This document shows, in pieces, positions 3,397 through 62,114 of a DNA stretch of 64,000 nucleotides. The stretch comes from an uncultured Gammaproteobacteria bacterium. Its GTDB lineage: Bacteria; Patescibacteriota; Microgenomatia; Levybacterales; GWA1-39-11. Location: positions 122,180 to 186,179 of the forward strand of contig CAZHDZ010000002.1 of NCBI GenBank assembly GCA_964531275.1. Reading direction: 5' to 3'. The translations under genes were made by a program, and so were the position numbers. The number at the start of each line of letters is the position of its first letter. Within the stretch, counting starts at the first letter, position 1. The notes below the pieces were generated by a model. The model was not told the origin of the DNA and ran no database searches. It was given only the letters and a program-made list of their open reading frames with translations.

Positions 3397-4533
3397 ATGA
3401 ACTACATAGAGGTTATTGATGAGATATTTAGCCAATTCAAAGGGCAAAAGTTTGCTATAAAATTTTGGAATGGCAAAACAATTCAGTATGGTTCCGGAAA
3501 ATCGCCAGCTTTCACTTTAATTTTCAAAGATGAAGTAACGGTTCAGAGATTGCTTGGTCAGGGTTCATTAGGTTTTGGAGAATCCTACATGGATGAGTCC
3601 TTACAGATAGAGGGTGACATTGAAAGCTATCTTCGCATGCGTCACCAATTCAAGCATATAAAGCCTTCTCTTCGTCTTGCCATTGCGCGAATTCTATCCA
3701 ACAAGCCAAGGCATAAAAGTCGCAAAGATCAAATTTCACATCATTACGATTTGGGTAATGATTTTTTTAAATTAATCTTAGACAACACAACCATGATGTA
3801 CTCATCAGCTTTCTATAAAAATGAAAAAGAAAAATTAAATAGTGCTCAAACAAACAAAATAGAATTTATTTGTAAGTGGCTTGATCTACCAAGTAATTCA
3901 CAAGTTCTCGACCTTGGATCCGGTTGGGCAGGATTTGCAAAAATAGCAGCTCAAAAATTTAAGTGGAATGTTATTGGGCTCACATTAAGCCAAGCGCAGC
4001 TTGCCTATTCGCAGGATCTAACTGAAAAAGAAAAATTGCAGAAGAAAGTAGTATTTAAAGAGCAAGATTTTGTAAAAGCTTTACCGTCAAAAAAGTTTGA
4101 TGGAGCGGTAATTATTGAATCTATAGAGCATGTTGGACAAAATAATCTTCAAAAATTCTTTAAGGATGTAGCAAAAGTTCTAAAATCAGGAGCACCTTTT
4201 ATCATTCAGACAACCGGAAGATACGAAATTCACAGAGTAGATAAGTGGACATTGAAGTATGTATTTCCAGGAGGTTATCTTCCAAGTAAGGGAGAGCTGT
4301 TGAAGTATGCTCAGGATGCAGGATTTACTGTCGAGCTTTTCCGCGATGATACAGATGACTACATTCGTACCATGACGATATGGATACAAAATCTGGAAAA
4401 GAATCAAAAGACAATTGAGAAAATGTTTGACAAGTCATTCTATAGACTATGGTATCTATGGATGCATGGAGCAAAAGTTAATTTTGAAATAGGAGACATG
4501 AGTCTTTTTCGAATAAAGTTGCGTCGAGCATAA
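3397..4533 (+). CDS. cyclopropane-fatty-acyl-phospholipid synthase family SAM-dependent methyltransferase
   Basis: HYDLGNDFFKL...MMYSSAFY and the VLDLGSGWAG SAM-binding motif, with overall length typical of the CFA synthase / mycolic acid methyltransferase family. Confidence 0.75.
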   Translation: MNYIEVIDEIFSQFKGQKFAIKFWNGKTIQYGSGKSPAFTLIFKDEVTVQRLLGQGSLGFGESYMDESLQIEGDIESYLRMRHQFKHIKPSLRLAIARILSNKPRHKSRKDQISHHYDLGNDFFKLILDNTTMMYSSAFYKNEKEKLNSAQTNKIEFICKWLDLPSNSQVLDLGSGWAGFAKIAAQKFKWNVIGLTLSQAQLAYSQDLTEKEKLQKKVVFKEQDFVKALPSKKFDGAVIIESIEHVGQNNLQKFFKDVAKVLKSGAPFIIQTTGRYEIHRVDKWTLKYVFPGGYLPSKGELLKYAQDAGFTVELFRDDTDDYIRTMTIWIQNLEKNQKTIEKMFDKSFYRLWYLWMHGAKVNFEIGDMSLFRIKLRRA

Positions 4534-5516: not shown

Positions 5517-5828
5517 ATGCCAGGAAATATTAAAATTTCCAGAGCCCAAATAATTCTAGGAGTTGTTTTTAATGTTCTAAGTTTTTTGATTTTAATATTA
5601 GCCATTAGGGGAAGTTTTGAGATAAAGGATTATGTAGGGGCGCTTCTTTGGAGTTTGGTCTGGGCAACACCTCTTTTGCTTGGAAAGCTTTTTGTTGCTT
5701 ACTTAGCTATTCGTAAAAACTTAAATACCTTAAGAATTCTGCTGTTGCTTTGGTTCTGCTTGGACATAATCGCTTTTTTGATAGTACTTCTTTATATGGA
5801 CTTTTTCCGTGTGTTGAAGTACTTTTAA
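5517..5828 (+). CDS. truncated paralog of the MDPQ-family membrane protein (N-terminal half only)
   Basis: The 103-aa LLGKLFVAYLAIRKNLNTLRILLLLWFCLDIIAFLIVL aligns to AVGKLVLVHFFLRKRSNVIRILLLGWVCLDMIIVM of the 5881 gene. The conserved C-terminal half is absent. Confidence 0.4.
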   Translation: MPGNIKISRAQIILGVVFNVLSFLILILAIRGSFEIKDYVGALLWSLVWATPLLLGKLFVAYLAIRKNLNTLRILLLLWFCLDIIAFLIVLLYMDFFRVLKYF

Positions 5829-5880: not shown

Positions 5881-6786
5881 ATGGATCCACAGACCCAAAT
5901 TATTCAACAACCTGTCCAACAAAATTTACCAGAAGGTAAGATCCATGCAATGCCTAGAGCTATGATTTTATTCTCATTCTTAATGTATGTGGGTGCATTT
6001 TTGAGTATAGTTGGTCCTCCCATGATGCTTAAGATGTTGGATTCTGGTTTTTACTCTTCAAGAACAAACGATCAGGCATTATTCCTAAGCGCTTTAGTTA
6101 TTGTACCGTTTGCAGTGGGAAAGTTAGTGCTTGTACACTTTTTTTTGAGAAAGAGAAGCAACGTAATAAGAATTTTATTATTAGGGTGGGTTTGCTTGGA
6201 TATGATCATTGTGATGGCAAATTCGCTTGGTAGCGCTGGTAGTTTTATGGCTCCAATGTTCATTCCGTTTCTTGCTCCTCTTGTTCAACTTATTTCACTC
6301 TTTTTTCTTTTCAGTGCCAGCTCTAGAGAATGGTTCATAACAGGGTTTTCTAGTACATCAGAACTTTCGAGGAGGTATTGGTACAAAATTATACCGAAAA
6401 CAAACATTGTATTTCTGGTACTGTCCTGCATCTTAGTATTTGGGCTAGACTTGTTAATCTTATTGTCTTCACCTATGCTTTTTCCTTTTTGGATTGAAAT
6501 GCTTGTCGCTTTTGGAGTCTTTATGGGATTCTTCTATGCGGAATGCTACACCTTTAGATCTAAGTTTTCTCAATCTTATTCAAGCGTTGATATCCCACTG
6601 TACTGCCTAATAGTTCTACGAAATTTTGTTCTATTCCTCAACTTTATTCCTTTAATTCAAATTATTGGTGCTATATTATCTGCAGTGGGTATTTTGCCTT
6701 ATCTTATTGTGTATGTGATATTAATTAGGATTCGAAATAAAGAAACTATGGTTGCGCCAGTAGCTATTCCTCAACCTCAGCCCTAA
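5881..6786 (+). CDS. hypothetical 8-TM membrane protein, paralog B (MDPQ-family)
   Basis: 301 aa; the same start (MDPQTQ) and the same C-terminal FPFWIEMLVAFGVFMGFFY...LNFIPLIQIIGA block as the 4578 gene. Confidence 0.6.
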   Translation: MDPQTQIIQQPVQQNLPEGKIHAMPRAMILFSFLMYVGAFLSIVGPPMMLKMLDSGFYSSRTNDQALFLSALVIVPFAVGKLVLVHFFLRKRSNVIRILLLGWVCLDMIIVMANSLGSAGSFMAPMFIPFLAPLVQLISLFFLFSASSREWFITGFSSTSELSRRYWYKIIPKTNIVFLVLSCILVFGLDLLILLSSPMLFPFWIEMLVAFGVFMGFFYAECYTFRSKFSQSYSSVDIPLYCLIVLRNFVLFLNFIPLIQIIGAILSAVGILPYLIVYVILIRIRNKETMVAPVAIPQPQP

Positions 6787-7514: not shown

Positions 7515-8162
7515 ATGAATTTGTTAGTAACATTATTTTTTCTTCAGAACATTATAGTAACAACTCTTCTTGGTTACAAATTCTTTTCTCAAAAAAACCC
7601 AGTATTTAAGAATTTTGGCATTGCCTTATTCCTAAATGCAGTAGCATTTGCTATTTGGTCATATGCAATTATCACCCAAGCCTCAGATCTAGGATTTTAC
7701 GTAACTGCTGGTGCTGCACCATTTATTGGATCCTTAGTTTTTTTAATGTTGGTAAGTGCGCAAAAAGTAAGCGAATCAATGAGAAAGAATCTTGTTATTG
7801 GATCTGCGGTAGTAGGTTTGGTGCTATTTGCTTTAAGAACTTTTGTATATCCATCAGCTCCTTCAATTTCTGAAGAAGGTTTGTTCTTCTTCAACTTACA
7901 CCCGATAATTCAAATGTTGTACGCCTTGGGCTTAGGATTTACTGCCATTCCAGCTATTAGTTTTGTGGCCGCAAAATTTAAAGGCAGATATTCTGCTATT
8001 GTGCGTTACGGATTTCTTTTAGAGGTAATTGGCGGAATTCTGCTTATGACAACATCTAATACATTCATGCTTTATATTTTGGGTTGGGTAATGGGTATTA
8101 CTTATTTTGTCCTGTGTGTTACTCTCGTTTTTAATAAAAAAACTTGGTCTCTATCCAATTAG
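7515..8162 (+). CDS. hypothetical multi-TM membrane protein
   Basis: 215 aa, about 6 hydrophobic helices, no recognisable motif. Confidence 0.45.
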   Translation: MNLLVTLFFLQNIIVTTLLGYKFFSQKNPVFKNFGIALFLNAVAFAIWSYAIITQASDLGFYVTAGAAPFIGSLVFLMLVSAQKVSESMRKNLVIGSAVVGLVLFALRTFVYPSAPSISEEGLFFFNLHPIIQMLYALGLGFTAIPAISFVAAKFKGRYSAIVRYGFLLEVIGGILLMTTSNTFMLYILGWVMGITYFVLCVTLVFNKKTWSLSN

Positions 8163-8224
8163 TATTCTGCCACTCTTCCTCTGCTAGAATAGCATACCTT
8201 TATGAAAGTTCTACATATAGGTTT

Positions 8225-8251
8225 ATGAAAATTTTACTTATACGACTATGA
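8225..8251 (+). other. 8-codon uORF (MKILLIRL) whose TGA overlaps the ATG of the downstream gene (ATGA) and which mimics its N-terminus (MRILLTG)
   Basis: atgaaaattttacttatacgactatga versus the gene start atgagaattttgcttactgga. Confidence 0.35.
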
Positions 8252-23754: not shown

Positions 23755-24852
23755 ATGCAGCGAATATTATTGATTCTTAGTTTCTTACTACTGTCCTTCT
23801 TCTTTGCGCCTCAAGTGTTGGCCCAAAGCGATTTTTCTGAAAAGCGATTTGAAGGTACTATTATCGCAATCGCCGAAACAAGCAGAATAATAGAGGCCAA
23901 TGGCAATGCGCATCCATACCAGCGCCTGAAAGTTCTTGGTACTTCGGGCGAATTTAAAGGTAAGACGTATGAAGTAGAAAACGGTTCTTATAACCAGTCC
24001 GGGGTGGTATCCTACTCGGTTGGTGACAAAGTTCTTCTTTCTGCACAAAAAGATGTATCAGGAAGAACAACAATATTTATTAATGATTACGTAAGGCGCG
24101 GCCCTCTCTATCTGCTTGCAGCAATATTTATTGTCCTTGCGATAGTTATTGGTGGAAAACGTGGAATTTTTTCTTTAGTTGGTCTTATCCTTACTTTTGT
24201 CTTGATTTTTACGTTTGTACTTCCTGCAATCTCTTCCGGACAAAATCCAATAGTAATATCAATCATAGCCTCAATTGTAATTGTGCCCGTTACCTTTATT
24301 TTGTCGCATGGGGTTAACAAAAAAACTTTTTGTGCTATTTTCTCAACATTTATAGTTCTTGTTATTACCGCTATTCTCTCCCAGATATTTATTGGCGCAA
24401 CACATCTTTCCGGTTTTTCCTCCGATGAAGTCTCTTTTCTAAATACAATAAAAAAAGGAATGGTGGATGCAAAAGGATTACTCTTTGCAGGTATTTTAAT
24501 AGCCTTATTGGGGATTTTGGATGACATTACAATTGCTCAATCAGCAATCGTATTTCAACTCAAAAAAGCAAATCAAGAGCTAGGATTCCTTGAACTTTTT
24601 AAAAGGGCTATGGACGTAGGACGAGATCATATATCTTCTATGGCAAGTACGTTAATTCTTGTGTATGCAGGTGCGTCCCTACCTCTTCTTTTGCTTTTTA
24701 TAAATAGCCCTCTCCCCTATGAGCAGGTAATAAATTATGAAATTATTGCTGAGGAAATAGTTAGAACTTTAACTGCAAGTATTGGACTTATTTTAGCCGT
24801 ACCTATAACAACACTACTTACTGCCCTTGTTGCTTCGCAAAGAGCTAAATAA
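23755..24852 (+). CDS. YibE/F family membrane protein with signal peptide and N-terminal extracytoplasmic domain
   Basis: Signal peptide MQRILLILSFLLLSFFFAPQVLA, then a roughly 100-aa soluble domain, then the YibE/F-like TM core (LLAGILIALLGILDDITIAQSAIVFQL...). Confidence 0.55.
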   Translation: MQRILLILSFLLLSFFFAPQVLAQSDFSEKRFEGTIIAIAETSRIIEANGNAHPYQRLKVLGTSGEFKGKTYEVENGSYNQSGVVSYSVGDKVLLSAQKDVSGRTTIFINDYVRRGPLYLLAAIFIVLAIVIGGKRGIFSLVGLILTFVLIFTFVLPAISSGQNPIVISIIASIVIVPVTFILSHGVNKKTFCAIFSTFIVLVITAILSQIFIGATHLSGFSSDEVSFLNTIKKGMVDAKGLLFAGILIALLGILDDITIAQSAIVFQLKKANQELGFLELFKRAMDVGRDHISSMASTLILVYAGASLPLLLLFINSPLPYEQVINYEIIAEEIVRTLTASIGLILAVPITTLLTALVASQRAK

Positions 24853-25162
24853 TCTTAATTAGCGAACCCTTTTTAATTTTAAGTTTTTTTATATTCCCTT
24901 GCGGCATTTCCAGAACCCCATTGTATACTGGATTCCACAGATACAGCTTGTTGGGCGTTAGACTTTCCTTACATGCCACCACTTTTCCATCACTATCAAC
25001 AATTGCTACATCAATAGGATATTTCATAAAGAATGTATGTATTCCGAAATGAGTTTTAAAATAAATTGCGACTGGTTTTTTTGAAGTTAGCAGACCTTCG
25101 CTTTTTTCTTTCCAGGAATGTAACTTTTTTGCCTTAATTTTAATCATTCTTACAGCTCCCAT
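24845..25162 (-). CDS. DUF192 domain protein
   Basis: ...HTFFMKYPIDVAIVDSDGKVVA...NGVLEMPQG matches DUF192 (COG1430). The ORF track extends to a TTG at 25183; the ATG at 25162 is more plausible. Confidence 0.5.
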   Translation of the reverse strand: MGAVRMIKIKAKKLHSWKEKSEGLLTSKKPVAIYFKTHFGIHTFFMKYPIDVAIVDSDGKVVACKESLTPNKLYLWNPVYNGVLEMPQGNIKKLKIKKGSLIKII

Positions 25163-25177
25163 GATACGATATAGGAT

Positions 25178-25219
25178 ATGCAATTAGTAGATGACGTTTT
25201 TAGCGAAGCGAACATGTGA
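25178..25219 (+). other. 13-codon uORF (MQLVDDVFSEANM) duplicating the RBS region and first 8 codons of obg, 134 nt upstream
   Basis: ataggatATGcaattagtagatgacgttttt versus the obg start ataggatATGcaattagttgacgatgtattt. The four nucleotide differences in codons 1-8 are all synonymous. Confidence 0.45.
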
Positions 25220-25311
25220 GGGAGCCAAAAACATCCCAACTCACTCTAGCACAGACAAGAATTGTTGCTTTGATTTAATCATAGCTTCAGTCACATGTTA
25301 TAATATAGGAT

Positions 25312-26277
25312 ATGCAATTAGTTGACGATGTATTTATCAATGTAAAAGCTGGTAATGGTGGAAATGGTGCCACTGTTACAAAGCAGATGTATGCATCCAA
25401 AAAAACTATGCCCGACGGTGGTAATGGTGGCAATGGGGGCAATGTTTTCTTTAAGGCTGATGCCAATATCTCGGACCTTTCTCAATTCCAGTTCAAAAAG
25501 AAAATAAGAGGTATTGATGGGGTCTCTGGGTTAAATAAGGATTTAGATGGAGCAAACGGCGAGGATATTACTGTTCTTGTGCCATTTGGGACTAACATTT
25601 TTAATGAAGATACTAAGGAACATGTCGAATTGACCACAGATTTACCCTTTTGTGTTGCTTTTGGAGGAACCGGAGGAATGGGAAATCATGATTTCAAGCC
25701 AGATATAAAGACTTTTTCGCCTCGTCAACATTTAGGCACGATGGGGGATGATTTTAGACTACATTTAGTTCTTAATCTTATTGCTGATATTGGACTCGTT
25801 GGATTTCCAAATGCTGGAAAAAGCTCTCTTTTAAAAGCGTTAACCAATGCAACACCTAAAATTGGCGACTATCCCTTTACAACTCTTGATCCAAATTTGG
25901 GGGTTTTTGAAAAACTAGTTATTGCAGATGTACCCGGACTTATTGAGGGAGCATCAGGCGGTAAAGGACTAGGTATAAAATTTCTAAAGCATATTAAAAA
26001 AACTAAGCTTCTACTCCATTGTGTTGCTGCCACAGAAGACGACCCTTATAAGACATATATGACAATACGAAATGAATTTAAGGAATTTGATTCTTCTTTG
26101 CTTGAAAAGGAGGAAGTAATCCTTCTTACTAAAAGCGATCTTATTAGTGAAGGTGAGGTTGAAGTAAAACTTAAATCCCTTAAGAAAGCAAAAAAACCTG
26201 TTCTTGCGGTTAGTGTTTATGAAGAAGAGGCTCTTGCCGCAGTACGTCACCAACTACTAACTTCTCTTAAACCGTAA
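25312..26277 (+). CDS. obg: GTPase Obg/CgtA (short form without C-terminal extension)
   Basis: N-terminal glycine-rich Obg fold (NVKAGNGGNGATV...DGGNGGNGGNVFF), then the G domain with GFPNAGKSSLL (G1) and DYPFTTLDPNLGV (G2/switch). Confidence 0.85.
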   Translation: MQLVDDVFINVKAGNGGNGATVTKQMYASKKTMPDGGNGGNGGNVFFKADANISDLSQFQFKKKIRGIDGVSGLNKDLDGANGEDITVLVPFGTNIFNEDTKEHVELTTDLPFCVAFGGTGGMGNHDFKPDIKTFSPRQHLGTMGDDFRLHLVLNLIADIGLVGFPNAGKSSLLKALTNATPKIGDYPFTTLDPNLGVFEKLVIADVPGLIEGASGGKGLGIKFLKHIKKTKLLLHCVAATEDDPYKTYMTIRNEFKEFDSSLLEKEEVILLTKSDLISEGEVEVKLKSLKKAKKPVLAVSVYEEEALAAVRHQLLTSLKP

Positions 26278-26352: not shown

Positions 26353-27021
26353 ATGCGGATTTTAATTGTTGAGGACGAACAAAAAATAGCCAATTCCCTA
26401 AAGAAAGGTTTTGAGCAAGAATCATATGCGGTTGATGTTACGTATGACGGACGTGATGGATATGAAATGGCAATATCTGAAGAGTACGACGTAATAATTT
26501 TAGATAGACTTATGCCAAAAATGAGTGGTATCGAGCTTTGTAAGAAGCTCCGGGAAGAAAAAAATCATACTCCTATTATTATGTTGACAGCACGCGGGGA
26601 AGTTGATGATAAAGTAGAAGGTCTTAACGCCGGAGCGGATGACTATCTTCCGAAGCCATTTGCATTTGCGGAGCTTCTGGCTCGTGTGAGAGCTGTCTCG
26701 CGGCGTCCAAAAGCTGCTGTCGCCTCAGTTCTCCAGGTCGGTGACTTGACACTTGATTCTGTGACATTCGAAGCTGTTAGGGGGAAAATTAGAATTAGTC
26801 TTTCTAGCAAAGAGTATGCACTTCTAGAATATCTCATGCGGCATAAAGGCAAAGTAGTTAAGAAAGAGCAAATAATGACCCATGTATGGAATTATGATGC
26901 AGACGTGATGCCCAATTCAGTTGAGGTTTATATAACACATTTGAGAAACAAGATTGATAAACCTTTTGTTGGACGAGAGCTAATTACTACGGTTAGAGGT
27001 TTTGGTTATAAAATCGGATAA
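26353..27021 (+). CDS. OmpR-family two-component response regulator
   Basis: Receiver domain (ILIVEDE ... D51 in ILDRLMP ... K in LTARGE) plus a C-terminal winged-helix (LTxxEYxLLEYLMRHKGKVVxKEQI...VEVYITHLRNKID). Confidence 0.85.
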   Translation: MRILIVEDEQKIANSLKKGFEQESYAVDVTYDGRDGYEMAISEEYDVIILDRLMPKMSGIELCKKLREEKNHTPIIMLTARGEVDDKVEGLNAGADDYLPKPFAFAELLARVRAVSRRPKAAVASVLQVGDLTLDSVTFEAVRGKIRISLSSKEYALLEYLMRHKGKVVKKEQIMTHVWNYDADVMPNSVEVYITHLRNKIDKPFVGRELITTVRGFGYKIG

Positions 27022-27026
27022 ATTAG

Positions 27027-27242
27027 ATGTTTCACAACGCTAGATTACAACTCACTGCCTGGTATTTGATAAGCGTAGCCAAGCAAATAAATTAATATGT
27101 TTCACAACGCCAGATTACAATTAACGGCATGGTATTTGCTTAGTGTAACGAAGCAAATAAATATGTTCCATAACGCTAGACTACAACTATCGGCATGGTA
27201 TTTGCTTATGATCAAGGACAAAGCAAATACTAACTATTAAAT
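27027..27242 (+). repeat. three degenerate tandem copies (70, 66 and 80 nt) of the histidine-kinase 5' end, forming short uORFs that encode MFHNARLQL(T/S)AWYL...
   Basis: ATGs at 27027, 27097 and 27163, with the real gene ATG at 27243. Each copy starts atgttYcaYaacgcNagaYtWcaaYtNNcNgcMtggtatttg, and the differences fall almost exclusively at synonymous positions. Confidence 0.8.
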
Positions 27243-28253
27243 ATGTTCCATAACGCAAGACTTCAATTAACGGCATGGTATTTGCTTATGATCATGTTCA
27301 TTAGCCTTATTTTTAGCGTGGTCATTTATGCAAATGTCGATCGTGAATTAGTAAGATTCGAGAAATTTCAGGAATTAAGCCGTGATAGAGCCGCTCAATA
27401 TTTTGGGTCATATCCAGGAGCGGAAATCCCCAACACTGTTGACGAGCAACTTATAAATGAAGCAAGAGGTAGACTTTTAAGTGACCTTGTAATTTTAAAT
27501 GTTTGTATTCTCATTGCTGCAGGTGTTGCGGGGTACTTTTTAGCTGGTAGAACACTTACCCCCATTAGAAAAATGATTGAGGATCAGTCTCGATTCTTTG
27601 GAGATGCATCTCACGAGCTCAAAACGCCAATCACCTCTCTCAAGTCTGAAATAGAAATTTATCTTCGACTAAAGAAAAAAAGCTTAAAAGATGCTGACGA
27701 GGTGTTGAAAAGTAACCTTGAAGAAGTTAACAGAATGCAAGACTTAACTAATAACTTACTAACGCTCGCAACGCTTGAAAAAGCAGGTCAAAAGCTAAAT
27801 TTTACCCAAGTATTTATTCGTGAAGTACTCTTGGAAGCTTCAAAAAATGTAAGCGCACAAGCAAAGAAGAAAAAGACCAGCATTACAATAAAGGGTCAAA
27901 ATATTTCTTTTTCAGGCAATCAAAATAGTCTCATTCAGTTATTTACTATTCTTTTTGACAATGCCATTAAATATAGTAAGGACTCAAGCAAGATTGTTGC
28001 AAGCGCCCAAAAGACGAACGGATTCGTGAGTATAAAGGTAGTAGATAATGGAATAGGAATTCCTGAGGATGAAATAGAGAATATATTTGACAGATTTTAT
28101 AGAGTTGATAAATCAAGAACGTCGGGTGACGCTGGAGGTTTTGGCCTTGGGCTTTCGATAGCAAAAGAAATTGTTCTACTTCACGGTGGCGAAATACAAG
28201 TTAAAAGTTCGTCTTCCGGCTCTACATTTACGATCGATATCCCCTCAGCATAG
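27243..28253 (+). CDS. sensor histidine kinase (HisKA + HATPase_c), partner of the upstream OmpR regulator
   Basis: H-box GDASHELKTPITSL, N-box FDNAIKYS, and G boxes DNGIGIPED and GGFGLGLSIAKEIV, with two N-terminal TM segments. Confidence 0.85.
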   Translation: MFHNARLQLTAWYLLMIMFISLIFSVVIYANVDRELVRFEKFQELSRDRAAQYFGSYPGAEIPNTVDEQLINEARGRLLSDLVILNVCILIAAGVAGYFLAGRTLTPIRKMIEDQSRFFGDASHELKTPITSLKSEIEIYLRLKKKSLKDADEVLKSNLEEVNRMQDLTNNLLTLATLEKAGQKLNFTQVFIREVLLEASKNVSAQAKKKKTSITIKGQNISFSGNQNSLIQLFTILFDNAIKYSKDSSKIVASAQKTNGFVSIKVVDNGIGIPEDEIENIFDRFYRVDKSRTSGDAGGFGLGLSIAKEIVLLHGGEIQVKSSSSGSTFTIDIPSA

Positions 28254-34016: not shown

Positions 34017-35504
34017 ATGAGTTCAATCGAATTAAAGAAAAATTCAAATCGTTTAGAGAAAAATAAAAGTTTTGTGTATAAGGGAGTGAGCTACATGCAT
34101 TATGCTGATATAGCTTTCCATCAAAGTGCATACTATCTCTTTACAAGAAAGCAAAAGATTCTCATTGTTGCTCTTCTACTAACCATAGCGGGTGCATTTC
34201 TTTTCAACTGGCATGCAACATTAATTTTCGCAGTTATATTTGTCACAGCGATATACTTCATTGATTTTTTCTTTAACTTTTTTCTCATCTTTAGAAGTTT
34301 TACAAATAAGCAAGAGCTTTCATTTACGAAAGACGAAGTACTTGCCTATAACAAAAGTTGGCCTACTTACACAATCCTTTGCCCTTTATACAAAGAATGG
34401 GCAGTAATTCCACAATTTGTTAAGGCAATGAAAAATCTTGATTATCCCAAAGAAAAGTTACAAATACTTTTCTTGCTCGAAGAGGATGATGTGCAATCGC
34501 AACAAGTTGTTAAGGAGTTTAATCTTCCTTCATTTTTCGAAACCGTGATTGTTCCACACTCTCTCCCAAAAACAAAACCAAAGGCAATGAATTTTGCATT
34601 GTCTAAAATTAAAGGAGAGTATTGTGTAATTTACGACGCAGAAGATGTGCCAGATACTTTGCAATTAAAGAAAGCGATTCTAGGATTTGATTTATCTGGT
34701 GAAAAAGTAGCATGCATACAAGCAAAACTAAATTTTTATAATCCGAGTCAAAATCTTTTAACAAAGGCTTTCACTGCTGAATATTCATTATGGTTTGAGC
34801 TTATTCTTCCGGGGCTACAGACGCTTAATGCTCCTATACCTCTTGGTGGTACGTCTAATCATTTTCGAACTGAAGGTATTAAGATGCTTGGTGGGTGGGA
34901 TCCATTTAACGTTACAGAAGACGCTGATCTGGGCATTAGACTTTTTAAAAAGGGTTACAAAACTGCAATTCTAGATTCAGTTACTCTTGAAGAGGCAAAT
35001 AGTGATTTTCTTAACTGGTATAACCAAAGAACTCGGTGGATAAAAGGATATATACAGACATACGTTGTTCACATGCGTCATCCCACTACATTTGATAAAA
35101 AGTTTTTGAATTCACATGTATTCTTGTTTCAGTTGATTATAGGGTCCAAAGTTTTCTCTCTTTTAGTAAACCCGTTCATGTGGATGTTAACTCTTGCTTA
35201 TTTTGTGTTCCAATTTCAGTTTGGTGCTTTTGTTGAATCGCTCTACCCGCCAATAGTTTTGTACTTTGCAGTAGCTACCTTAATATTTGGTAATTTTTTG
35301 CAGATTGTATATTACATGATCGGTTGCTACAGAAAAAAAGAATTTGCACTTTGCAAATATGCATTAATAATCCCACTCTATTGGATTGGAATGAGCGTTG
35401 CAGCATGGAAAGCATTATATGAAACGTTCTATAAGCCTTATTACTGGTCAAAAACAAAACATGGTTTACATCTACAAAAGCCTGTAGTTTCTACAAATAG
35501 TTAA
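34017..35504 (+). CDS. family 2 glycosyltransferase, processive beta-glycan synthase-like (BcsA/NodC-like), paralog 1 (single-domain)
   Basis: D...DAED (VIYDAEDVP), TED (VTEDADLGIR) and QxxRW (QRTRWIKGY) motifs, with 2 N-terminal and about 4 C-terminal TM helices. Confidence 0.8.
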   Translation: MSSIELKKNSNRLEKNKSFVYKGVSYMHYADIAFHQSAYYLFTRKQKILIVALLLTIAGAFLFNWHATLIFAVIFVTAIYFIDFFFNFFLIFRSFTNKQELSFTKDEVLAYNKSWPTYTILCPLYKEWAVIPQFVKAMKNLDYPKEKLQILFLLEEDDVQSQQVVKEFNLPSFFETVIVPHSLPKTKPKAMNFALSKIKGEYCVIYDAEDVPDTLQLKKAILGFDLSGEKVACIQAKLNFYNPSQNLLTKAFTAEYSLWFELILPGLQTLNAPIPLGGTSNHFRTEGIKMLGGWDPFNVTEDADLGIRLFKKGYKTAILDSVTLEEANSDFLNWYNQRTRWIKGYIQTYVVHMRHPTTFDKKFLNSHVFLFQLIIGSKVFSLLVNPFMWMLTLAYFVFQFQFGAFVESLYPPIVLYFAVATLIFGNFLQIVYYMIGCYRKKEFALCKYALIIPLYWIGMSVAAWKALYETFYKPYYWSKTKHGLHLQKPVVSTNS

Positions 35505-46747: not shown

Positions 46748-48864
46748 ATGGCACCTTTAAAAATATTGTTCTTCAAATGTAAACCGTGCTTTGTCTTTGA
46801 CCAATGGTGTGGTGCAGTAATTAGCTTATATACAGCCATCCATGCAGCGGCACTCATGAGTAACCAATATATGGGCACAAAAAGAGCGTATTTAATAAGC
46901 GCATAGTGCCCATGCTTTGCGCATCCGATCATGTAGTAATACATGTAAAGGAAATTCCCACAGATGAGAGAAGCAATGCCAAGATAAAGAACAGGTACTG
47001 GGAATAATGATTCAATTATTGGACCAAATTGAGACCTAAATAAGAAATAGAGAATTGTTAGCATCCACATTGCGGGGTTAACAAACATTGAAAATATTTT
47101 GCCCCCAATAACCATTTGAAAAAACAAAAGATCAGGTTTTCTAAATGTACTTGAGAAATCTCCTGGTTTTCTCATGTGCAAGAAATACGTTTGAATGTAC
47201 CCTTTTATCCATCTCGTTCTTTGCCAAAACCAGTTATTTAAATCACTATTTGCTTCCTCTAGAGTTACTGAAGAAACTATGGCTGTTTTGAATCCTAATT
47301 TTGCGATTCTCATCCCTAGATCTGCGTCTTCTGTTACATTAAATGCATCCCAACCCTTCAACATCTTAAGATCTGAAGTTCTAAAGTGGTTTGAGGTTCC
47401 ACCTAATGGGATTGGAGCTTTTATAGATTGTAGGCCCGTAAGAACCAAATCAAACCATAGTGAATACTCGGCTGTAAACGCTTTTGTCAGAATATTTTGA
47501 TGGGGATTGTAAAAATTTAACTTAGCCTGTATGCACGCTGTTTTACGCCCTGCCCTCTCAAATGCAAGAACTGCTTTTTTAAGTTGCATAGGTTCTGGTG
47601 CATCTTCGGCATCAAAAATAACAACAAACTCTCCAGTCGCCCGAAGCAATCCATAATTACAAGCCTTTGGTTTTGTCTTTGGGAATGAATGAGGAACAAT
47701 AATTGCTTCAAAATATGAAGGTAGGTGAAGTTTTTCTATGTAAGAAAGGCTTTCAGTATCATCTTCCTCCAAGAGCAGCTGAACCTGCAACTTATTTTTT
47801 GGATAGTCTAACTTTGATATCGCTTGGGTAAATTGAGGGATTACCTGCCATTCTTTATAAAGCGGGCAAAGAATTGTGTACCTTGGGAGGCGTTCATCAT
47901 TGATTTCTGAAAGCGCTACATCTTCTATAACTATCTCTGCTGGATTTGCAAAGCTTCTTATGATTAAGAATAGGTTAAAAAGTAAATCCAGAAAATATAA
48001 TGTCGTTATAATCCCAACAAAGGAGATAAGAGCTAACTTCCAGTCTGAAGCAAAGGAATACACGCCAGCAGTTAGCATTAAGAGCATTAGTGTAATTTGT
48101 CTTTGATTGAATCTATAGAATGCACTTTCATCCTGAGGAAGCTCTGAGTAATGAACAAATTCTTTCCCGTCGTAATGAAATCCATTGCCTTTTTCTTTTG
48201 CAATTCGTGGGTGAAAAGGAATTACTACGTGTCCAAGAACTTTAAGACGCAACTTTTCCTTAACTAATGTCATTATCCCATGAAGGGTTCTATTGGCAGG
48301 TTTTTTGAAGAATCTTCTTGAAGTGTTGGCTTTGAAAGCAGTAACGATATAGCCGGCGTCTTTTGAACTTTGTATAAATTCAAAGTCAAAAATAGATGAA
48401 TTTAAATTTAAACGCTCATAAATTTCTCTCTTAAAAACAACTAAATCCAGCTGAAGATCTACACCTACTAATTTTCTCAAAAACCCCTTAGCTACTCTTT
48501 TATTGCTTGCGTAGACAATGTCGTTTGATTCCAACTCTTGTATCATTTGACTAACGATATCAATCGGGTATTTGCTTCCAAATTCCATTACGCAAATATT
48601 CTTATACGATGAATTTTTCAAACCTCTTTGAATGTTGTAACCACGACCCGGCTTTCCGTCTCTTTTTATTAACTTAATGGGATAATGGCTTAAGAAAACC
48701 CTCGTGTCCCACTCAGAACTTTCTGAAAATGTGTCGGCAACAAAAATTATTTCGTACGAGTCACGCTGACCATCAAACAAAGCGTCAATTTTAGTTACTA
48801 TTGACTCAAAACTTTTTCTGACGCCGGATACATGAACAATAAAGGAGGTTTTTGGAAGATTCAT
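46744..48864 (-). CDS. bifunctional glycosyltransferase: N-terminal DPM1/ArnC-like GT2 domain, TM region, C-terminal processive BcsA/NodC-like GT2 domain (paralog 2)
   Basis: The N-terminus has IIFVADTF...RDGKPGRG. The C-terminal half has the YTILCPLYKEWQVIPQF block shared with 34017.., plus FDAEDAP, TEDADLGMR and QRTRWIKGY. Confidence 0.75.
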   Translation of the reverse strand: MNLPKTSFIVHVSGVRKSFESIVTKIDALFDGQRDSYEIIFVADTFSESSEWDTRVFLSHYPIKLIKRDGKPGRGYNIQRGLKNSSYKNICVMEFGSKYPIDIVSQMIQELESNDIVYASNKRVAKGFLRKLVGVDLQLDLVVFKREIYERLNLNSSIFDFEFIQSSKDAGYIVTAFKANTSRRFFKKPANRTLHGIMTLVKEKLRLKVLGHVVIPFHPRIAKEKGNGFHYDGKEFVHYSELPQDESAFYRFNQRQITLMLLMLTAGVYSFASDWKLALISFVGIITTLYFLDLLFNLFLIIRSFANPAEIVIEDVALSEINDERLPRYTILCPLYKEWQVIPQFTQAISKLDYPKNKLQVQLLLEEDDTESLSYIEKLHLPSYFEAIIVPHSFPKTKPKACNYGLLRATGEFVVIFDAEDAPEPMQLKKAVLAFERAGRKTACIQAKLNFYNPHQNILTKAFTAEYSLWFDLVLTGLQSIKAPIPLGGTSNHFRTSDLKMLKGWDAFNVTEDADLGMRIAKLGFKTAIVSSVTLEEANSDLNNWFWQRTRWIKGYIQTYFLHMRKPGDFSSTFRKPDLLFFQMVIGGKIFSMFVNPAMWMLTILYFLFRSQFGPIIESLFPVPVLYLGIASLICGNFLYMYYYMIGCAKHGHYALIKYALFVPIYWLLMSAAAWMAVYKLITAPHHWSKTKHGLHLKNNIFKGAI

Positions 48865-59669: not shown

Positions 59670-62114
59670 TTAAAATATTGATGACGCGTACTTCAAAGGC
59701 GTGACAATTGCTTTTTTGAAAGCAAGAACACCGAAGCTGATAATCTTTCTCTCAGCAATACCAATAACAATAAGAGTTCCAGCAAATAGTGCTAAAGTTT
59801 TTCTCTCAAAAGACCCAAGGAGGACGATGGGCCCAAGAATTCCACGAGTTACAGAAACTTTGGGGAACTTAAAGTCTGGCTTAGGAAGTCGAAGTCCAGG
59901 TTGAGGCACAACGACCGGAACAACTTCAGCTGCTCTTTCCTGTTCTTGTTTTTTCTTAAGAAGATGAAGACCGTGAACAGTTTTCTCCCAATAGAATGGT
60001 TTGAAAATCAATTGGTATAAAGCCATGAATCCAGCAACAGAAATCATGAGCCAATAAAAGGGTATTAAGAACGTGTATTTTATAAGTGGGTAATGCTCTC
60101 TTTTCATTACTCCAATCATGTAGTAGTACATAAATAGGAAATTTCCGAATATGAGAGAGAAGGCTGCCATGTAAAAAACAATGGCAGGGTAAAGTTTTTC
60201 TATTGTGGGTCCAACGTAAATATAAAGCGTAAAGTATGCAATTGTTGCAAGCCAAAGCAAGGGGTTAATCAGAATAAACGCAATCTTACCCCCAATGATC
60301 AGGTGAAATATAGGAAAATGATGTCCGCGTGTTTTTGCAAAGGCAAGACTATTTCTCGTATGCACAAGATACGTCTGCATGTAGCCTTTAATCCAACGTG
60401 ATCTTTGCCTTATCCAATTTCCCCACTTACTGTTAGCCTCCTCAAGGGTCAGAGAATCAATAATCGCCGTCTTATAACCACCTTTAAATAAACGCATACC
60501 TAAATCGGCATCTTCAGTTACGTTGAACGGATCCCACCCTTGCAACATATGCAGATCCTCAGTTCTAAAGTGATTTGAGGTCCCTCCTAGTGGAATGCTT
60601 GTATTAATTGATTGAAGTCCCGTTAGTGTAATGTCAAACCATAGCGAATACTCAGCTGTAAAGAACCTTGTAAGTAGGTTTTGTGAGGGGTTGTAGTAAT
60701 TTAGTTTTGCCTGCAAGCAAACGACATCTCGCCCGGCTTTTTGAAATGCTGCATAAGCTTTTTTCAACTGCATTGGTTCTGGCTTATCCTCGGCATCAAA
60801 AATGACTAGGTATTCACCCCTAGCAAAAGAGAGCCCATAATTACATGCCTTTGGCTTAGTCTTTGGTTGAGAATTAGGAACAACTACAACCCGTACATAT
60901 GATGGTAGCTTCATCTGCCTTGCAGCAAGTATTGATTCTTTATCGTCTTCTTCAAGAAGCAGCATGACGTCCAATTTCCTTTTTGGCCATGATAACTGAG
61001 ATATATTCTCTACAAATTGGGGAATAATATGAGCTTCTTTGTAAAGAGGGCACAAAATTGTATATATGGGTAGATGCTTGTCTTGCAATACTGAAAGCTC
61101 TCTTGGTGTGAAAGAAATTTCCTGAGGAAAATGGAGACTTTTAAGTACTACAAATAGATTAAATACTGTGTCAGAGAAGTAAATAAAGCTTAATATGGCA
61201 ACAATAAACGAAAGAGTTGCAACCGGACTCAAAACCACTCCCATAATAGCAAGCTCAATAAGAAGTGCTATCGTAAATTTTTGACCTGAAGTAAATGTAA
61301 TGATAGATGATTTGCTGTGATGCAGTGTCGTGTGAGTAACGTATTTTTTTCTCTTATATCGGATTCCTGCACCACGCATTGTATTTGTCTTTTCAGAAGG
61401 AACGATACGAGGAGATAACTTGGCCAATTTGAGATTTAGCGCAGAAGAACCAATCTCATATACAGTTCTAATTATTCCGATTTTAGATTCTCCCTTTTTT
61501 CTCTTTGAAAAAGTTATGTCGTGATTTGTAATCGAGAACCCCGCTTCGCGTGCACTATGCAAAAAAGCTAGATCAAAAGTCCAAGCAGAAGATGGCTTGA
61601 AATATATTGTAGATATTACTTCTTTTTTAAATACTTTAAGCCCTGATTGTATATCATGGTCAAGGCCAAACAAGAACTTTCCAAATCCAAATCTAAAACC
61701 ACGACTAAGAGTTCTTCGAAGAACATTGTCTTTGTACCTTCTTCTATTGGAACAAACAATATCTACATCCTTTAGCTTAAGAGCCATTTTTGCGATTTCT
61801 TCGGGAGGATATTGAAGATCAGCATCGATGAGGGCCAAATTAGAATATTTAGCTTCGGAAAAGCCCTCAAATAACGAATAAGCCTTTCCTTGCTTTCCCT
61901 TTTTGAGCAAATGCCTTACAGGATAATTTTCTGTAAGTTTTTTTACTATTCTTGCGGTTCCGTCTTTTGATCTATCATCTATTATTAGAATTTCAAATTT
62001 AAATTTACCCTTCTCTAAAGAAGCTGATAGTCTTTCTATTAATTCCCTAACAGAACCTTGCTCGTTGTAAGCCGGAACAATTATTGATATCTCTTTTTTA
62101 AATATGTTTTTCAT
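59670..62114 (-). CDS. bifunctional glycosyltransferase: N-terminal DPM1/ArnC-like GT2 domain, TM region, C-terminal processive BcsA/NodC-like GT2 domain (paralog 3)
   Basis: The N-terminus has ISIIVPAYNEQGSVRELIERL...ILIIDDRSKDGT...LIDADLQYPPEEI. The C-terminal half has YTILCPLYKEAHIIPQF, VIFDAEDKPEPMQL, TEDADLGMR and QRSRWIKGY. Confidence 0.8.
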   Translation of the reverse strand: MKNIFKKEISIIVPAYNEQGSVRELIERLSASLEKGKFKFEILIIDDRSKDGTARIVKKLTENYPVRHLLKKGKQGKAYSLFEGFSEAKYSNLALIDADLQYPPEEIAKMALKLKDVDIVCSNRRRYKDNVLRRTLSRGFRFGFGKFLFGLDHDIQSGLKVFKKEVISTIYFKPSSAWTFDLAFLHSAREAGFSITNHDITFSKRKKGESKIGIIRTVYEIGSSALNLKLAKLSPRIVPSEKTNTMRGAGIRYKRKKYVTHTTLHHSKSSIITFTSGQKFTIALLIELAIMGVVLSPVATLSFIVAILSFIYFSDTVFNLFVVLKSLHFPQEISFTPRELSVLQDKHLPIYTILCPLYKEAHIIPQFVENISQLSWPKRKLDVMLLLEEDDKESILAARQMKLPSYVRVVVVPNSQPKTKPKACNYGLSFARGEYLVIFDAEDKPEPMQLKKAYAAFQKAGRDVVCLQAKLNYYNPSQNLLTRFFTAEYSLWFDITLTGLQSINTSIPLGGTSNHFRTEDLHMLQGWDPFNVTEDADLGMRLFKGGYKTAIIDSLTLEEANSKWGNWIRQRSRWIKGYMQTYLVHTRNSLAFAKTRGHHFPIFHLIIGGKIAFILINPLLWLATIAYFTLYIYVGPTIEKLYPAIVFYMAAFSLIFGNFLFMYYYMIGVMKREHYPLIKYTFLIPFYWLMISVAGFMALYQLIFKPFYWEKTVHGLHLLKKKQEQERAAEVVPVVVPQPGLRLPKPDFKFPKVSVTRGILGPIVLLGSFERKTLALFAGTLIVIGIAERKIISFGVLAFKKAIVTPLKYASSIF

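Follow-up and report, generated by a model that had tools for sequence, protein, structure and literature searches.

Termination-reinitiation coupling occurs at overlapping stop and start codons such as ATGA. Leaderless genes, described mainly in Actinobacteria and Deinococcus-Thermus, carry as their signature a −10-like TANNNT box about 12 nucleotides (nt) upstream of the start codon (Zheng et al. 2011, PMC3160421; PMC12340547). Bidirectional promoters consist of overlapping −10 elements whose hexamers pair in a defined geometry, with divergent transcription start sites about 18 bp from one another (Warman et al., bioRxiv 10.1101/2020.01.31.928960; PMC12825309). In mycobacteria, polycistronic messenger RNAs can begin with leaderless short open reading frames (ORFs), some of them conserved, which open with the 5′-terminal AUG and precede a longer gene unrelated to them in sequence; polycysteine attenuators are an example (Shell et al. 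2015, PMC4633059; 10.1101/834739). Here we set against these systems the start region of obg, encoding the Obg/CgtA GTPase, in a 64,000-nt stretch (hereafter the window) of contig CAZHDZ010000002.1 from the metagenome-assembled genome (MAG) GCA_964531275.1, in which a second copy of the gene's own start lies upstream and opens a short decoy ORF. We hold it probable, at roughly 0.6, that a lineage-specific duplication-with-insertion of about 135 bp doubled a compact bidirectional promoter and start module shared by obg and the divergent DUF192 gene, and that the decoy is a by-product of this event.

Like described leaderless genes, obg has a −10-type hexamer that starts 13 nt before its ATG, lacks a Shine-Dalgarno sequence at functional spacing, and shows an arrangement that is conserved in orthologues and enriched in the window; unlike them, it belongs to Patescibacteria, for which our literature search found no paper on leaderless expression. 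As in bidirectional promoters, the −10 elements overlap and the divergent genes are about 30 nt apart, but here the whole unit is tandemly duplicated, giving an inner pair of convergent promoters, an arrangement for which we found no description in the literature. The decoy resembles the mycobacterial short ORFs in opening at a predicted 5′-terminal AUG upstream of a longer gene, but differs in being a lineage-specific, paralogous copy of obg's own first 8 codons. Stop/start junctions of the coupling type occur in two other arrays in the window (8202/8225/8248 and a histidine-kinase gene), whereas the decoy stop lies 92 nt from the obg ATG.

A duplicated start region between DUF192 and obg

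The locus has the following features, in order along the window.

24845–25147, minus strand: DUF192 gene (PF02643; 100 amino acids (aa), start MIKIKAKK), divergent from obg, with its start set by orthologues
25125–25202: repeat copy 1, proximal to DUF192, made up of DUF192 codons 1–7 (minus strand), a 30-nt intergenic region and decoy obg codons 1–8
25178–25219, plus strand: decoy mini-ORF, ATG CAA TTA GTA GAT GAC GTT TTT AGC GAA GCG AAC ATG TGA, encoding MQLVDDVFSEANM*
25203–25260: filler between the copies, 58 nt, without a matched source
25241–25282, minus strand: DUF192-start relic MIKSKQQFLSVLE*, 13 codons, frameshifted relative to MIKIKAKKL
25261–25336: repeat copy 2, proximal to obg, made up of the frameshifted DUF192-start relic, a 29-nt intergenic region and real obg codons 1–8
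25312–26277, plus strand: obg (Obg/CgtA GTPase, 321 aa), with Pfam GTP1_OBG and MMR_HSR1 on the identical protein

The sequence bears out the original prediction that the start of obg is duplicated upstream with four differences, all silent, and that the upstream copy ends after 13 codons. The real gene opens at ATG 25312 with ATG CAA TTA GTT GAC GAT GTA TTT, and codons 1–8 read MQLVDDVF in both decoy and gene, the differences being GTA/GTT, GAT/GAC, GAC/GAT and GTT/GTA. This amounts to 4 synonymous differences at 4.0 synonymous sites and to 0 at 20 non-synonymous sites. The duplication therefore stands as described, but its limits do not: the repeat spans 78 nt and reaches into DUF192 codons 1–7. 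Gapped local alignment of the two copies gave 78% identity over 77 columns, with 15 mismatches and two single-nt gaps, and BLAST of the window against itself returned the same 77-nt gapped match at E = 3e-8. The longest exact repeat between the copies is 20 nt.

We scanned for ATG-led copies of a gene's first 8 codons, with at least 7 of 8 identical and within 400 nt upstream. In the window only obg and the histidine kinase (27243) qualified, and neither 15 relatives' loci nor 1,580 random control windows yielded a single case, so the match at obg lies far beyond chance. The structure is also present in a Logan contig (L001, run SRR12762304), which matches the window at 100% identity across 2,588 nt that include both copies; it is therefore not specific to one assembler.

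The true start of DUF192 is ATG 25147 (MIKIKAKK), matching relatives. Gene calls differ at this point, NCBI giving 105 aa from ATG 25162 and Logan 100 aa from 25147. An overlap of the upstream copy with the 5′ end of DUF192 had also been proposed; it depends on a mechanical ORF from TTG 25183, whereas relatives set the start at ATG 25147. In the adjoining minus-strand segment of copy 1 (25148–25162), an A-to-C change relative to relatives turns TCACATG into TCCCATG. With it, the TGA that ends the frame of the upstream ATG in relatives is lost, and a new GGAG arises 8 nt before the DUF192 ATG.

By Obg protein, the nearest named relatives are Patescibacteria (Levybacteria/Levyibacteriota). For comparison at the DNA level we used 10 relatives from nine lineages, obtained by protein search and contig look-ups, with Obg 66–89% identical: L082–L087 (89%), L088 (79%), L089 (74%), L116 (70%), L117 and L122 (69% each), L123 (68%), L119–L121 (67%) and L124/L125 (66%). 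A scan of genome contigs for Obg gave a best match of 51% identity. In all 10 relatives DUF192 and obg are divergent and the start region is single-copy, so the duplication is specific to the lineage of the window. The intergenic region measures 19–57 nt in nine relatives and holds an IS200/IS605 insertion in the remaining lineage. Four-fold degenerate sites differ between the window and its nearest relative at 0.47–0.83, that is, they are saturated, and the absence from relatives thus dates the event only to some time after a deep split. Phe8 (TTT) is common to both window copies, whereas relatives have Tyr, Thr, Val or His. This points to an event in situ, later than the divergence from the nearest relative, in which both copies came from a single sequence of this lineage. 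At 90% identity, protein clusters for Obg, DUF192, YibE_F and the kinase contained only this genome and no second strain. An exact scan of metagenome contigs with the conserved 18-mer ATAGGATATGCAATTAGT gave 26 matches, all judged chance occurrences in unrelated contexts, and no relative.

A promoter joined to the start codon

Each copy of the repeat carries sequences that read as −10 elements on both strands, listed here as P1 (copy 1) and P2 (copy 2).

25162–25170, plus strand: P1, extended −10 TGaTACGAT, read from sequence, followed by the spacer ATAGGAT to 25177
25171–25166, minus strand: P1 opposite-strand −10 TATCGT, facing DUF192
25296–25304, plus strand: P2, extended −10 TGtTATAAT, read from sequence, followed by the spacer ATAGGAT to 25311
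25305–25300, minus strand: P2 opposite-strand −10 TATTAT, read from sequence and also detected by promoter scan

In both copies the consensus TGnTAYRAT is followed by exactly 7 nt and then by ATG; the hexamers TATAAT (25299–25304) and TACGAT (25165–25170) each start 13 nt before the respective ATG. The duplicated element had been taken for a ribosome-binding site. The shared ‘ataggat’ is not one: its AGGA, the only purine-rich tract, stops 1 nt short of the ATG, and no Shine-Dalgarno sequence stands at functional spacing; what was duplicated is instead a −10 promoter box with a leaderless-type ATG, and ‘ataggat’ is the 7-nt spacer between them. The arrangement is conserved: all 10 relatives have a TATAAT, TACAAT or TAAAAT hexamer 6–7 nt before the obg ATG, and the string TGTTATAATATAGGATATG, the same as in the copy 2 region of the window, is present identically in L117 and L119.

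A TANNNT box at leaderless spacing before obg, together with the missing Shine-Dalgarno sequence, conservation in orthologues and enrichment in the window, leads us to infer that obg messenger RNA is leaderless or nearly so, with transcription start sites and leaderless translation predicted accordingly from sequence. A TANNNT hexamer stands 5–9 nt upstream of 16 of the 51 gene starts in the window, against about 5.9 expected from background frequency, and correctly spaced Shine-Dalgarno-like 4-mers are few at the same 51 starts. This suggests that leaderless expression may be widespread in this Patescibacteria genome. Many first-in-operon genes have TGnTAnnnT or TANNNT 6–8 nt before the ATG and no Shine-Dalgarno sequence, examples of leaderless-type starts being 23755, 26353, 28291, 40091, 43859, 16434 and 18629. 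A clear GGAGG occurs at only a few window genes.

The opposite-strand hexamers overlap the plus-strand −10 elements with positions 2 and 6 paired (TATAAT/TATTAT and TACGAT/TATCGT), which is the pairing geometry described for bidirectional promoters (bioRxiv 10.1101/2020.01.31.928960). The best reading of the ancestral 30-nt spacer is thus a single bidirectional promoter, which would express a leaderless obg in one direction and DUF192 with a leader of about 12 nt in the other. For P2, the predicted divergent start sites would fall at 25311/25312 (plus strand) and at about 25293 (minus strand); for P1 they would fall at 25178 (plus strand) and at about 25159 (minus strand).

Start-region duplications at other genes of the window

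The claim that obg is not a one-off, and belongs with the histidine-kinase gene, is supported and extended: four gene starts in the 64-kb window (691, 8248, 25312 and 27243) are preceded by copies of themselves. At the same BLAST threshold, 129 kb of relatives' loci held no comparable short-range repeat, the single match being a 300-nt repeat in L004. The three further cases are as follows.

634–673 and 672–711: start of the gene at 691; period 38, copies directly abutting; the unit runs TGATATACT, 8 nt, start codon
8199–8256: start of an epimerase-family gene at 8248; 23-nt repeat, 2.5 copies
27018–27294: start of the histidine-kinase gene, about 2 kb downstream of obg; three decoys at ATG 27027, 27097 and 27163, real start at 27243

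At gene 691 the real start (ATG 691, MDVQGNL) is preceded by a copy at GTG 653 that reads VGIQRNL* and differs mostly non-synonymously; conservation of the peptide is therefore not general, which counts against the proposal that these copies act as decoy N termini. Just upstream of this duplication, a 55-nt tandem repeat occupies 446–630 (3.4 copies, 96% identity), and the Logan contig L127 ends inside the array, at position 601. At gene 8248 the mini-ORFs MKVLHIGL* and MKILLIRL* precede MRILLTG, with starts at 8202, 8225 and 8248, and each TGA overlaps the next ATG as ATGA. The chain begins at an ATG (8202) that is near 5′-terminal, downstream of TGCTAGAAT, and ends at the real start. The histidine-kinase decoys encode MFHNARLQLTAWYLISVAKQIN* and a 47-aa fusion of two copies, all three being of the MFHNARLQLTAWYL[IL]SV[AT]KQIN type, and their stops lie 1–2 nt before the next ATG (TAA-T-ATG and TAA-AT-ATG).

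In most relatives the stop codon of the response-regulator (RR) gene directly abuts the kinase ATG. The RR/kinase junction is unstable across the clade: L082 has two degenerate kinase-start copies there (ATGTTCCTTGACG... and ATGTTTCATGACG..., 5719–5809), L119 carries the 14-nt unit TAGTAACTAATAAC repeated twice (6140–6196), and in L088 a run of 100 N stands exactly at the junction (about 4430–4530). Elsewhere in the window, segments 34252–35480, 46777–47999 and 59955–61101 share 60–65% nucleotide identity over about 1.1–1.2 kb; the last lies inside an 814-aa glycosyltransferase gene, and the three are ordinary gene-family paralogues.

We interpret the recurrence as a mutational tendency towards short duplications of gene-start modules on which a survivorship filter acts. 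Where spacers measure 20–30 nt, as in this compact genome, a tolerated duplication would have to leave one intact promoter-start unit, as may be the case at obg and gene 691. Alternatively, it would have to pass ribosomes on to the real start by way of stop/start junctions, as the arrays at gene 8248 and the kinase would allow.

Origin of the second copy and status of the decoy

The duplication-with-insertion can be laid out as a sequence of plausible steps. In this clade, obg would have an extended −10 promoter separated from its ATG by 7 nt, implying a leaderless messenger RNA, and the same AT-rich hexamer read on the other strand would face DUF192. Because promoter, start codon and first codons form a single stretch, both gene starts were duplicated together with the promoter. 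After the event, the outer halves would serve the real genes, copy 1 driving DUF192 and copy 2, with its perfect TATAAT, driving obg. The inner halves would be relics, namely the 13-codon obg decoy on the plus strand and the frameshifted 13-codon DUF192 relic on the minus strand, and the inner promoters, if both are active, would fire towards each other across the 58-nt filler. The four silent differences probably arose mostly because the real obg can change only silently and the number of sites is small. Most likely, then, the decoy is a by-product that has been tolerated. It would serve at most as a weak second promoter rather than as a device dedicated to re-initiation or to making a decoy peptide. 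Both the activity of P1 and the decoy's lack of function are inferred, and the feature, though real and unusual in appearance, is probably an ordinary genome scar rather than a demonstrated regulatory device.

How strongly the silent-only pattern speaks depends on the model. If all changes are unconstrained, four of four silent differences have P = 0.0003–0.002, but the real obg copy can change only silently. We therefore refined the model, leaving the relic free at 24 sites and the real copy at only about 4 silent sites, so that each difference is silent with a probability of 0.28–0.35. Among the three nearest relatives (L082, L088 and L089), codons 4 and 5 are private to copy 2; copy 1 shares GTA with all three and GAT with L082 and L088. 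More distant relatives (L116 and L117) carry the copy 2 codon GTT, and silent sites are saturated against L082, so this polarity is suggestive only. Constraint at the DNA level was not demonstrated: in orthologues, synonymous codon identity is 51% at obg codons 2–8 and 37% at codons 9–22.

Several observations weigh against the explanation preferred here. Under the refined neutral-relic model, four of four silent differences have a calculated P of about 0.006–0.015. In a freely decaying decoy, about 86% of the differences are expected in the decoy itself, where 16–24% of random changes are silent. The DUF192-start relic in copy 2 is frameshifted, and the obg decoy has suffered no indel or missense change. 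The histidine-kinase copies, with a proportion of synonymous differences (pS) of 0.33–0.94 and of non-synonymous differences (pN) of 0.03–0.08, also differ mainly silently among decoys. Between two of them, the pure decoys c1 and c2, there are 5 silent and 2 conservative changes over 15 codons (calculated P about 0.005 under neutrality). This peptide-level conservation at the kinase is strong, is not explained by a relic model, and is the main lead to come out of the analysis. Last, the 58-nt filler keeps the copies from lying head-to-tail, and they are hence no plain tandem duplication. For obg itself, the case that the decoy is not decaying freely is moderate, not decisive, and rests on four substitutions.

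The filler was compared by local alignment, with shuffle controls, with obg codons 9–48, DUF192 codons, both strands of the window and seven relatives' loci, and no homology was found (all p > 0.2). An exact scan of viral contigs gave 0 matches, and folding showed no significant RNA or DNA structure. A weak 64-nt match between 7608–7671 and 25257–25320 (67% identity, E = 0.05) was judged to be chance.

The alternative that survives best, though we regard it as unlikely, is that the decoy is a functional, translated leaderless upstream ORF (uORF) under purifying selection for its peptide or its frame. It might act by promoter occlusion, by translation-coupled effects on the P1 transcript or through a decoy N-terminal peptide, and would be the same device as at the histidine kinase. 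The improbability of four silent differences in a neutral relic and the pattern between kinase decoys c1 and c2 both speak for a uORF, as do the intact extended −10 (TGaTACGAT) and ATG that the decoy keeps and the existence of leaderless short-ORF attenuators in mycobacteria (10.1101/834739, PMC4633059). Against this stand the absence of the decoy from all 10 relatives, the fact that only 8 codons are shared while the rest, SEANM*, has no counterpart, and the gene 691 duplication, which is not conserved at the peptide level. At least 2 of the 4 silent changes, moreover, plausibly arose in the real copy (judged against L082, L088 and L089), although with uncertain polarity.

Geometry argues in the same direction. 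The 92 nt between decoy stop and obg ATG contain a perfect TGnTATAAT promoter (P2), and with such a gap and a promoter of its own for obg, re-initiation is neither needed nor geometrically favoured. No terminator-like site was found in the leader between decoy and obg, its fold is no better than that of shuffled sequence (z = −0.36), and an Rfam search gave no match at E up to 1. The decoy thus lacks what an attenuator shows, with no structure, no conservation in relatives and a stop that is not near the obg start, and the regulated re-initiation put forward in the original prediction finds no support here.

A broader form of the same idea is that duplicated starts, at obg and especially at the kinase, are retained as translated decoy mini-ORFs under purifying selection, so that paralogous N-terminal micro-ORFs would form a new class; this we consider rather doubtful. 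If it were true, such micro-ORFs could tune the parent gene through a stop/start ribosome relay, or their peptides could compete with the N terminus of the parent protein.

It is less probable still that recombination brought in one of the copies from a related strain, for example in a homology-facilitated illegitimate event that followed the uptake of DNA. In that case the silent differences would be the ordinary divergence of two functional alleles, and the filler would be junction DNA. All silent states of copy 2 (GTT, GAC, GAT, GTA and TGTTATAAT) do occur in other lineages, and copy 1 resembles L082 and L088, but third-position states are highly prone to homoplasy. Phe8, unique to this lineage, is present in both copies, so a donor must have been a very close relative, and the databases hold no second strain. 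Filler of foreign or unknown origin is present, and both silent-only cases flank the same obg–RR unit; per-gene divergence from L082, however, has no step where the copies meet, although with silent sites saturated throughout this comparison is uninformative.

It is very improbable that a small mobile element in the DUF192–obg spacer, such as a miniature inverted-repeat transposable element (MITE) or the remnant of an insertion sequence (IS), left the repeat as its footprint or as a target duplication. In L119 (3165–3955), as well as in L120 and L121 (Obg 67%), an IS200/IS605-type element lies between DUF192 and obg; it carries a Y1 transposase, on either side of which stand direct copies of an end that contains a hairpin (...CCACCCGCGGGGTGG...). 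The spacer has thus served as a site of insertion in a relative, and the filler has no local homologue. Target-site duplications of bacterial IS elements usually measure a few to about 14 bp, however, and the 78-nt flanking repeat is far longer. The filler also lacks terminal inverted repeats or a significant hairpin, has no second copy in relatives' loci or in the window, the 64 kb of this genome that the search covered, and shows no similarity to the L119 element.

An assembly artefact joining strain variants is hardly credible: the silent-only differences resemble strain polymorphism, the source genome is a MAG and the break of Logan contig L127 inside the 446–630 array shows that repeats trouble assembly here, but the independent Logan contig is 100% identical through both copies, exact repeats do not exceed 20 nt, and unique filler with differing left halves could not be produced by collapsing or looping strain variants. 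A diversity-generating retroelement was rejected, as the differences (A/T, T/C, C/T and T/A) are not adenine-specific.

Even as a scar, the duplicated obg start is a clean natural example of a leaderless promoter, start codon and first codons behaving as one duplicable module. Duplication of the promoter of a leaderless gene automatically makes a decoy start and, where the promoter is bidirectional, a convergent inner promoter pair as well. The locus and its window give evidence from sequence that leaderless expression is common in one lineage of Patescibacteria. Together, the four duplications in 64 kb and the peptide conservation at the kinase provide a lead on how genes may remain expressed after start duplication in genomes poor in Shine-Dalgarno sequences, possibly through a stop/start relay, and they raise the question of whether N-terminal micro-ORFs can become functional.

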